Source: Alphaproteobacteria bacterium
GTDB lineage: Bacteria > Pseudomonadota > Alphaproteobacteria > JAGOMX01
Direction: 5' to 3'
DNA: 64,000 nucleotides
Assembly (NCBI GenBank): GCA_041738135.1
Contig: JBGSQK010000018.1
Coordinates: 4,103-68,102 of the forward strand
Shown: piece after piece, positions 61,677 through 63,881 of the stretch
How the letters are laid out: every line of letters starts with the position of its first letter
Numbering within the stretch: the first letter of the stretch is position 1
Position numbers and translations under genes: made by a program
Notes under the pieces: model-generated
The model's database searches: none
Told to the model about the DNA's origin: nothing
Seen by the model: the letters and a program-made list of their open reading frames with translations, nothing else

Positions 61677-63881
61677 ATGTTTAAACCAAGTACTTTCATG
61701 CGTCACACCTTAATTATCCCCTTTATCCTATTAACGAATGCCCACGCAAGCGAAATGAGTGATCCATCAATGGCCGTAGAATCCGAGTTAAAGAAACAAA
61801 AAGTGCAAGTACCTCAAGCGGAAGCTAGACCTACGTCTAGGTCTTTTCACAACGGTGCGTTTACTTTGACAGATGATTTTTCTTGGTTGCGAGATCCCAC
61901 TTGGAAGCAGGCCAAGGATGGAATTCAAGATTCTCAAATCATGGATTATATTAAGCAAGAAGAAGCATATACGGATGAATTTCTAGCACCATTAAAGCCG
62001 ACCATTGATGAGTATGTTAAACTTAGATTGGCTATGATCGCTGAGGCAGAGAATTCCTATCCAGCCTTGGATCATGAATACTATTATTTCTCGCGCACCA
62101 GTAATAAGACTCAATATCCGGTATATTTCAGGTTTAAAAAAGCTCAAACGCCGGAAGATGCAGTGGCATATTTTGATGGAAACAAGGAAGCCGAAGGGCA
62201 TAAATTCTTTAGTTTATCCTCTTTGGATGTCAGTCCTAACGGTCAGCTTTTGGCTTATGCTACGGATACGGCTGGCAATGAAAAATATACGGTCCGAATA
62301 CGTAATCTGATAACTGGTGCTGAATTGTCAGATACTCTATCAGAGATTAACGGCTCTGTTACTTGGACAGCTGATAACAATGGTTTTTACTATGTGCGTA
62401 GAAACGAAAATGACCGTCCGCAATTTATCTATTATCATGTGCTGGGAACAGATCAAGAAACCGATCAACTGCTTTATACGGAACAAGACGAAACTGCATA
62501 TATGGGAATAGGGTCTTCATCAGATGAGCAATATCTGTTTATAGTATCTTCCACTTCCGATGAGACAGGATTACAAGCCATAAAGTTGGGCCCTGTGGTG
62601 GATCATAGCATCTACAATCTGGTGGACAGAAAGCCAAATCGTAAAGTGGATATTGAGCATAAGGATGGTTACTTTTATATGCTGACCAATGATAGGGGGG
62701 ATAACTTCCGCCTTGTGAAAACGGCTGTGGGACAGGTTCAGAATGATCATGCTTGGCAAGAGATCTTGCCGGTAGATAAGAACCGTTATCTGACAGATAT
62801 TAAGGTGGCTGCCAAGGGCATTGCCGTTGCATCCAGGAATGGGGGCTTGACCGAGATCGGTGTTTTGGACGAGCAAAACCGAACCCTGCATTTGATTCCC
62901 ATGCCAGAAAAAGCCTATGATGCGACTTTGAAGGGCATGGATTATGAGGCGGATTATCTGCGGTTTTCCTATTCTTCCCTATCGAAGCCACCTTCTACTA
63001 TTGAGGCGAGTTTTGACACTCTTCAAACTTTTGTGCGTAAGGTAAGGGAGCTGCCTTGCGGTCATAATCCGGACAATTATGTGACGGACCGACTTTTTAT
63101 CGATGCTAGGGATGGGGTGAAGGTGCCTGTGTCCTTAGTTTATAAGAAGGACAGGTATGTGCAGGATGGTACGAAACCCTTGTTCTTATATGGCTATGGT
63201 TCTTATGGCATAAATATTGACCCTGAATTTTTGGACTGGATTCTGCCCCTTTTGGATAAAGGTTTTGTCTATGCCATAGCCAATGTGCGGGGCGGATCTG
63301 AGATGGGATATGGATGGTATTTAGACGGTAAGATGGAAAAAAAGGACAACACCTTTAACGACTTTATCGACGTGGCACAAGGCTTGATTCAGCAGAAATA
63401 TACCTCGAAAGGTAATATCACTGCCTTTGGAGGTAGTGCTGGGGGTCTTCTTATGGGGGCTGTTGCCAATAAGGCTCCTGAGCTCTTTAAAAGCATGGTA
63501 TCTATGGTTCCCTTTGTAGATTTGATCAACACCATGTTAGACGGCAGTTTGCCTTTAACACCTGGCGAATATCAGGAGTGGGGCAATCCTGAAAGTGATC
63601 CTGAGGTTTATGCTCGATTGCTTAGTTATTCACCTTATGACAACCTGAGCGCTGGTATAAACTATCCCGCTATGTATGTCACGGGTGGTATCTATGACTT
63701 CCGTGTCACCTATTGGGAAATGCTGAAATATGTGGCCAAGTTGCGGCATGTATCACCGGAAACCCCTGTATGGCTGAGGATGAAAACAGCAGGTCATGGC
63801 GGCGGCACGGCTCTTGAAGATAAATTGCGTGAACGAGGTGAGGTTTACGCATTTGCGCTGAAAATGCATGGTTTGCTTTAA
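61677..63881 (+). CDS. ptrB: oligopeptidase B / prolyl oligopeptidase family (S9A) with N-terminal signal peptide extension
   Basis: 734 aa. N-terminal beta-propeller, C-terminal alpha/beta hydrolase with GGSAGG nucleophile. A ~55-aa N-terminal extension with a hydrophobic leader precedes the conserved FSWLRD start region. Confidence 0.75.
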   Translation: MFKPSTFMRHTLIIPFILLTNAHASEMSDPSMAVESELKKQKVQVPQAEARPTSRSFHNGAFTLTDDFSWLRDPTWKQAKDGIQDSQIMDYIKQEEAYTDEFLAPLKPTIDEYVKLRLAMIAEAENSYPALDHEYYYFSRTSNKTQYPVYFRFKKAQTPEDAVAYFDGNKEAEGHKFFSLSSLDVSPNGQLLAYATDTAGNEKYTVRIRNLITGAELSDTLSEINGSVTWTADNNGFYYVRRNENDRPQFIYYHVLGTDQETDQLLYTEQDETAYMGIGSSSDEQYLFIVSSTSDETGLQAIKLGPVVDHSIYNLVDRKPNRKVDIEHKDGYFYMLTNDRGDNFRLVKTAVGQVQNDHAWQEILPVDKNRYLTDIKVAAKGIAVASRNGGLTEIGVLDEQNRTLHLIPMPEKAYDATLKGMDYEADYLRFSYSSLSKPPSTIEASFDTLQTFVRKVRELPCGHNPDNYVTDRLFIDARDGVKVPVSLVYKKDRYVQDGTKPLFLYGYGSYGINIDPEFLDWILPLLDKGFVYAIANVRGGSEMGYGWYLDGKMEKKDNTFNDFIDVAQGLIQQKYTSKGNITAFGGSAGGLLMGAVANKAPELFKSMVSMVPFVDLINTMLDGSLPLTPGEYQEWGNPESDPEVYARLLSYSPYDNLSAGINYPAMYVTGGIYDFRVTYWEMLKYVAKLRHVSPETPVWLRMKTAGHGGGTALEDKLRERGEVYAFALKMHGLL

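Follow-up and report, generated by a model that had tools for sequence, protein, structure and literature searches.

The present analysis concerns a 64,000-nucleotide stretch of DNA from an uncultured alphaproteobacterium (contig JBGSQK010000018.1 of GenBank assembly GCA_041738135.1, positions 4,103 to 68,102 of the forward strand), which we refer to as the window, and in particular the gene ptrB for an oligopeptidase B (OpB). This gene is an intact, uninterrupted open reading frame at 61677-63881 on the plus strand, exactly as a preliminary description of the same DNA had given it. Its product of 734 residues begins with MFKPSTFMRHTLIIPFILLTNAHASE and is made up of a predicted Sec signal peptide, a short linker and an OpB core. 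The identical product is on record in both NCBI and Logan. On the same strand, ptrB is preceded by the genes of a DnaQ-like exonuclease and of a Lon-type protease.

The ptrB gene and its catalytic core

The N-terminal extension that precedes the conserved core of PtrB is very probably translated, and four observations lead to this conclusion. A Shine-Dalgarno sequence, AGGGAG (61665..61670, plus strand), lies 6 nucleotides (nt) ahead of the ATG at 61677, whereas none of the in-frame methionine codons M8, M27 and M32 has a GGAG upstream. An in-frame TAA is found at 61656, 21 nt ahead of the ATG, which means that the reading frame cannot extend further in the 5′ direction. The third observation is that the product is identical in the NCBI and Logan records, and the fourth that the same leader layout is present in the nearest homologues, as described in the following section. 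The preliminary description had given the extension as about 55 residues ahead of the conserved start. That it is real and located N-terminally to the core is borne out by the alignments, while its length comes to 42-45 residues, depending on the reference used.

The mature catalytic core comprises residues 45-734 (61809..63878, plus strand) and has the two-domain fold of the S9A peptidases, with an N-terminal hydrolase strand and helix, a beta-propeller and an alpha/beta-hydrolase domain. The Pfam families Peptidase_S9_N (PF02897, residues 52-454, E-value 8.9e-75) and Peptidase_S9 (PF00326, residues 520-730, 8.2e-56) are matched, and the sole NCBIfam match is oligopeptidase B, PRK10115, in which residues 46-710 of the query align to positions 3-655 of the profile. 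The best match in the PDB is the OpB of Serratia proteamaculans (SpOpB; E-value 6e-140, 471 bits). Here, residues 45-728 of the query align to residues 3-672 of the chain, and the conserved core accordingly begins at residue 45. In the same search, the OpB structures score 460-471 bits, the trypanosomatid OpB about 340 bits and the prolyl endopeptidases at most 236 bits. At the level of sequence, the protein clearly belongs to the OpB subfamily of MEROPS S9A. An AlphaFold model of it, calculated with 70 sequences, has a mean predicted local distance difference test score (pLDDT) of 92.6 and a predicted template modelling score of 0.91.

The catalytic triad is complete. The order Ser-Asp-His characteristic of OpB is provided by Ser587 in the motif GGSAGG (codon at 63435..63437), Asp674 (63696..63698) and His707 (63795..63797), and the glutamate responsible for the P1 specificity is present as Glu631 (63567..63569). 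All four codons are on the plus strand, and all four residues are invariant in the 117 closest full-length homologues (117 of 117 in each case). The triad aligns with the catalytic residues of SpOpB, Ser587 with S532, and Glu631 is the counterpart of E576, which in that enzyme binds the basic P1 side chain (PMC9917282).

A scan of a genome collection for close relatives of PtrB returned distant matches only (38% Hyphomonas, 26% Flavobacteriaceae). The closest full-length relative found has an identity of at most 60%, and one fragment of 446 residues reaches 73%.

The N-terminal leader and its occurrence among homologues

Residues 1-24 (61677..61748, plus strand) show the three parts of a Sec type-I signal peptide. 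The n-region, MFKPSTFMRH, has a charge of +2 (K3 and R9). It is followed by an h-region of 10 residues, TLIIPFILLT, with a mean Kyte-Doolittle hydropathy of 2.82 in the best 9-residue window, and by the c-region NAHA, which places A22 at position −3 and A24 at position −1. The predicted cut by signal peptidase I is after A24, between AHA and SE. The leader thus combines a charged n-region, an h-region of between 7 and 15 residues, a polar c-region and small residues at −3 and −1, which together define the Sec type-I class. Neither a twin-arginine (RR) motif nor a lipobox Cys occurs in the leader, and there is no Cys at all in residues 1-30.

This and all other signal-peptide calls made here are rule-based, taking into account the charge, the hydropathy of the h-region (with a cut-off of 2.0), the residues at −3 and −1, the RR motif and the lipobox Cys. 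Applied to the window, the rule picks 12 of the 49 large open reading frames. Of these, the ones that can be assigned to a family are envelope proteins, namely a secretin, a CpaD-like lipoprotein, DsbD and a TlpA-like redoxin, and none of the plainly cytoplasmic proteins of the window (LeuRS, AlaRS, RecA) is picked.

The leader is connected to the core by a disordered linker of 20 residues (SEMSDPSMAVESELKKQKVQ, residues 25-44; 61749..61808, plus strand), as seen from the PDB alignment, the AlphaFold model and an alignment of the clade described below. It lies outside the fold and is missing in the cytoplasmic OpB enzymes. In the AlphaFold model, residues 1-39 have a pLDDT below 50 and constitute the sole low-confidence stretch.

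The four nearest full-length homologues, P0002 (60% identity), P0003 (51%), P0005 and P0006 (44% each), are metagenomic and likewise have signal-peptide-like N-termini, joined to the core by linkers of about the same length. Together with the query (P0001) they form a five-leaf clade in a neighbour-joining tree, in which all members carry both leader and linker. The character of the leader is kept in these proteins despite little sequence identity in this part, which argues that it is translated and functional.

The presence of a leader had been considered noteworthy in the preliminary description, on the grounds that PtrB is normally cytoplasmic. This is true of the enterobacterial enzymes but not of the family. 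Among the 117 homologues, 49 have a leader of the signal peptidase I type and 25 a lipoprotein-like one (74 in total, or about 63%), while 43 are leaderless, with the caveat that these classes depend on the gene calls. Leaders are found, for example, in the homologues from Xanthomonas axonopodis, Lysobacter panacisoli, Vulcaniibacterium tengchongense, Sphingomonas and Sphingomicrobium. In a published survey, 35% of the annotated bacterial prolyl oligopeptidases have signal peptides, and for most of those from Proteobacteria a periplasmic location is predicted (PMC4522959); the same trend has been described across the S9 peptidases (bioRxiv 10.1101/2024.09.22.614393, preprint). A leader-bearing PtrB is by these counts ordinary rather than unusual.

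On the homologue tree the leader state switches at least 24 times, from which it follows that leaders are readily gained and lost, although some of these changes may stem from the choice of start codon, as in the case of P0076 and P0080. These two entries are one and the same Vulcaniibacterium tengchongense gene with two annotated starts (711 vs 699 residues), and the shorter version is without the signal peptide. Leader counts in database sequences therefore hinge on the start-codon calls.

Neighbourhood of ptrB and the exonuclease/Lon pair

The two upstream genes are considered here as context, outside the ptrB unit. The first, at 57180..59240 on the plus strand, encodes a DEDDh (DnaQ-like) exonuclease whose N-terminus resembles a signal peptide only weakly and which contains a Lys-rich region as well as an insert of about 285 residues between the ExoII and ExoIII motifs. 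The second, at 59313..61604 on the plus strand, encodes a LonA-type protease without the N-terminal LON domain; its N-terminus is signal-peptide-like, and it contains a low-complexity region rich in Lys. The three genes are separated by gaps of 72 nt, each has its own Shine-Dalgarno sequence, and their GC contents of 43.7-44.0% can be compared with 43.5% for the window. It had been suggested that all three proteins have signal-peptide-like N-termini. This holds for PtrB and for Lon (hydropathy 2.56), while the exonuclease is marginal, with a value of 1.53 that is below the cut-off of 2.0; its orthologues have clear leaders.

It had also been proposed that the three genes constitute a co-regulated secreted locus. 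The linkage that this would involve was not seen in any other lineage that could be read. Only the exonuclease and Lon recur as a pair, and the PtrB homologues have other neighbours. An RNase_T-domain gene followed directly by an N-domain-less Lon is found in three other lineages (L010/L011, L012 and L013). L010 and L011 are two near-identical contigs, and they represent the sole lineage with a readable flank downstream of Lon, since L012 and L013 end just after it. In L010/L011, Lon is followed by an open reading frame of 111 residues and then by MscS on the other strand, with no PtrB there. Looking from the side of PtrB, neither Lon nor the exonuclease was found beside the homologues in four other lineages (L004, L005/L006, L007/L008 and L009). 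The leader-bearing homologue in L004 is located between RsfS/MutY and GST, those in L005-L008 are preceded by the gene of a CCA-adding enzyme or poly(A) polymerase and followed by RelA or PGK, and the one in L009 (60% identity) comes after an ABC-transporter ATPase gene. These gene orders, the separate Shine-Dalgarno sequence and the stem-loops on either side of ptrB lead us to regard it as an independent unit, whose position behind the exonuclease and Lon in this genome is probably fortuitous.

Two relatives with 81-82% LeuRS identity (L014 and the P0246 contig) have no exonuclease/Lon/PtrB trio at this chromosomal position. Compared with 53300-57179 of the window, both of them keep the DUF3576-LeuRS-LptE-like-HolA-like block, and past DUF3576 they have Tad-pilus genes (CpaD/secretin, or T2SSE/F) in place of the trio, which therefore is situated at a rearrangement point. 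The window has a Tad cluster of its own at about 18653-22556. As to wider relationships, the LeuRS of the window is 70-84% identical to those of metagenome-assembled genomes and 60-63% identical to those of Rhodospirillales and Holosporales, the two orders being about equally distant from it.

Two further readings of the trio were considered and rejected. A genomic island is at variance with the GC content and the GC content at third codon positions of the three genes, which match those of the window. As to anti-phage defence, PtrB has no match in a PADLOC scan, and the matches of the exonuclease and Lon are via generic domains only (DEDDh/PDC-S48, and BrxL at 47 bits). Concerning the closest Lon homologue, P0123 (66% identity; ERR12035931), a partial gene of 479 residues with no assigned family is present 157 nt downstream on the same strand. 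This fragment is probably not a PtrB, because no such fragment is among the top PtrB matches.

Strong stem-loops that are mutually unrelated follow all three genes (59253-59281, 61613-61641 and 63882-63927). Their z-scores are −4.8 to −5.7, they begin within about 12 nt of the stop codons, and their U-tracts are weak or missing. The one in the 72-nt gap between Lon and ptrB (61613..61641, plus strand) is a perfect 13-bp stem-loop, GGAAGAGCCTTGA ATT TCAAGGCTCTTCC, with a centroid energy of −23 kcal mol−1 and z = −4.8 relative to shuffled sequences. There is no U-tract after it, and termination, attenuation and stabilisation of the mRNA are all possible roles. Immediately behind the stop codon of ptrB there is a long, terminator-like stem-loop (63882..63927, plus strand), the 3′ side of which ends with CUCUUUAU.

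Ahead of the exonuclease gene, and separating it from the divergent DUF3576 lipoprotein gene, there is an unusually long, AT-rich intergenic region of 784 bp (56396-57179; 34% GC vs 43.5%), which probably holds the regulatory region of the exonuclease/Lon pair. No Rfam family is matched anywhere in the whole window, including this region.

By its recurrence the pair is a conserved two-gene module, and it is the real oddity of the region. The DEDDh exonuclease and the LonA-type protease lacking the LON-N domain are adjacent, in this order, in at least four lineages (57180-61604 on the plus strand of the window; 164-4548 in L010; 7855-12292 in L012; 3957-8602 in L013). In every lineage, both proteins have a signal-peptide-like start, an acidic/aromatic patch and 150-250 residues of low complexity that are rich in Lys, Pro, Ala and Thr and contain K(K/R)x(K/R) motifs. 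Examples of the patch are STFNWGFEEDD, which follows a leader ending with STA, and SVPEYDSDDGEW, which follows one ending with SSA.

In the Lon protein of the pair, both Walker motifs (A and B) and those of the Ser/Lys dyad are retained. Export of such an ATP-dependent protease is paradoxical, unless it is delivered to an ATP-containing compartment such as a host or prey cell. The Lon homologues P0130-P0141 (568-600 residues) are a separate group of short proteases that have a single N-terminal hydrophobic helix in place of the N-domain, and the positive charges before this helix and the acidic residues after it predict an outward-facing ATPase, which is odd. In the exonuclease, about 285 residues (approximately 331-615) lie between the ExoII motif (residue 324) and the ExoIII motif (residue 616), a spacing far above that usual for DnaQ-type enzymes. 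The full-length exonuclease family is very rare: of 1.84 billion cluster representatives, only 6 belong to it at E <= 1e-30. A literature search for exported Lon or for effectors bearing nuclear localisation signals gave nothing relevant.

Proposed function, alternatives and relation to known enzymes

We consider it likely that ptrB encodes a Sec-exported periplasmic oligopeptidase B. The precursor would be directed to SecYEG, signal peptidase I would remove the leader behind Ala24, and the mature enzyme of 710 residues would then fold in the periplasm, where it would cleave short peptides, for OpB those of fewer than about 30 residues, after Arg or Lys. Its physiological role is probably either the trimming of peptides before uptake, that is, scavenging, or the destruction of cationic peptides on their way to the inner membrane. 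The degradation of proline-rich antimicrobial peptides by bacterial OpB is among the earlier findings cited in PMC9917282.

A number of points weigh against this proposal or narrow it. The PRK10115 score of 453 is far under the equivalog cut-off of 1313, and a specificity identical to that of Escherichia coli PtrB is therefore not guaranteed. At the position of D578 in SpOpB the query has Gln633. This position varies among the 117 homologues: 51 of them have D, 17 have E, 13 have K and 11 have L, and it is acidic in 68. The signal peptide is a prediction founded on rules and conservation, and the enzyme may be exported beyond the periplasm. Regarding transcription, a promoter scan of the 72-nt gap between Lon and ptrB gave no match at the scan threshold, and since the gap is only this long and has no such match, read-through from Lon into ptrB is possible. 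The hairpin in the gap is no proof of separate transcription, because hairpins are also present inside the conserved pair, where in L012 and L013 they occupy the equivalent gap separating the exonuclease from Lon.

The points concerning transcription are shared by an alternative that takes the idea of the preliminary description further, in which the exonuclease, Lon and, as third member, PtrB form a co-transcribed, Sec-dependent set that is released past the outer membrane, for example into a eukaryotic host or a prey cell. The common strand, the short and equal gaps, the matching GC contents and the absence of a promoter-like site at the scan threshold would all fit such a set, as would the hydrophobic leaders that begin all three proteins and the fact that an intergenic hairpin is no bar to the pairing of exonuclease and Lon elsewhere. 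One can add that the Lys-rich regions of the exonuclease and Lon contain K(K/R)x(K/R) motifs and that an exported Lon, which requires ATP, would be of little use in the periplasm. However, PtrB is unlinked to the pair in every other readable lineage, and the trio is missing at this position in the relatives with 81-82% LeuRS identity. Furthermore, leader-bearing PtrB is common in free-living bacteria, and the present one is without the long Lys-rich region of its neighbours, having a single KKQK and a K+R content of 11% compared to 17-19%. A strong stem-loop and a separate Shine-Dalgarno sequence also stand ahead of ptrB. In our view, this alternative has only a small chance of being correct. 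We attach similarly little weight to the idea that PtrB is co-expressed with the pair either as Sec-dependent cargo delivered into a host or prey cell or as a periplasmic processor of the Lys-rich N-terminal regions of the other two proteins ahead of their release. If it were true, the three genes would be one functional effector module in this uncultured alphaproteobacterium.

Another option considered was that the N-terminus is an uncleaved signal anchor, which would keep the enzyme on the inner membrane, facing the periplasm. The Pro in the h-region could be taken in favour of this, the flexible 20-residue linker could act as a tether, and lipoprotein-tethered homologues do exist (25 of the 117). 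However, an h-region of about 10 residues is too short for a bilayer, a canonical A-x-A site comes directly after it, and there is no Cys for lipidation, so that an anchored enzyme is hardly probable. Finally, a mis-called start, which the preliminary description had named as a possible flaw and in which translation from Met27 or Met32 would give a cytoplasmic enzyme like E. coli PtrB, is very improbable: these in-frame methionines do lie near the conserved start and start ambiguity is seen in the family (P0076 vs P0080), but only the first ATG has a Shine-Dalgarno sequence, the textbook n-h-c leader is found also in the four nearest full-length homologues despite low identity there, and the 734-residue form is in the records of two sources.

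The predicted periplasmic OpB can be compared with several known enzymes. It shares the two-domain fold, the triad and the P1 glutamate (E576 in SpOpB, E631 in the query) with the S. proteamaculans OpB (PDB 7YWP/7NE7) and with E. coli PtrB (PRK10115), and it is collinear with the former across the whole core. These two enzymes begin at the conserved core and have no signal peptide or linker, whereas the query has both. The architecture of the query, with leader, short linker and OpB core, is that of P0047, P0055, P0076, P0093, P0096, P0099 and P0107 from Xanthomonas, Lysobacter, Vulcaniibacterium, Sphingomonas/Sphingomicrobium and Flavobacteriaceae. These named leader-bearing homologues are 37-39% identical to the query, compared to 44-60% for P0002-P0006, and the literature examined gave no experimental localisation for any of them. 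The part preceding the core has a median length of 28-35 residues in the leader-bearing homologues, vs 44 in the query.

The periplasmic prolyl endopeptidases of bacteria are also S9A enzymes with the same fold as the query, but they accept Pro rather than a basic residue at P1, and their matches are at most 236 bits. For many of them the literature gives a signal peptide and a predicted periplasmic location, above all in the Proteobacteria (PMC4522959).

The trypanosomatid OpB (PDB 2XE4 and 4BP8) belongs to the subfamily of the query (340-343 bits) and has the same trypsin-like P1 specificity, but it is a eukaryotic enzyme. It is not known to have an N-terminal signal peptide. It is reported to be released into the blood of the host and to attack peptide hormones of the host outside the cell that made it (PMC4376731). 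The analogy to a secreted virulence factor, which had been drawn from this enzyme, is weak, is not transferable to the present case and tells nothing about a bacterial enzyme exported by Sec.

PtrB is a new sequence, but as a class the S9A peptidases with a leader are already well known. Taken alone, a further OpB that is predicted to be periplasmic, here from an uncultured alphaproteobacterium, is of small importance, and since about 63% of the nearest homologues have a signal peptide, its presence on a PtrB homologue is no sign of unusualness. The value of the result is mainly negative, in that PtrB is taken out of the upstream exonuclease/Lon pair, and it is this pair that merits separate study.

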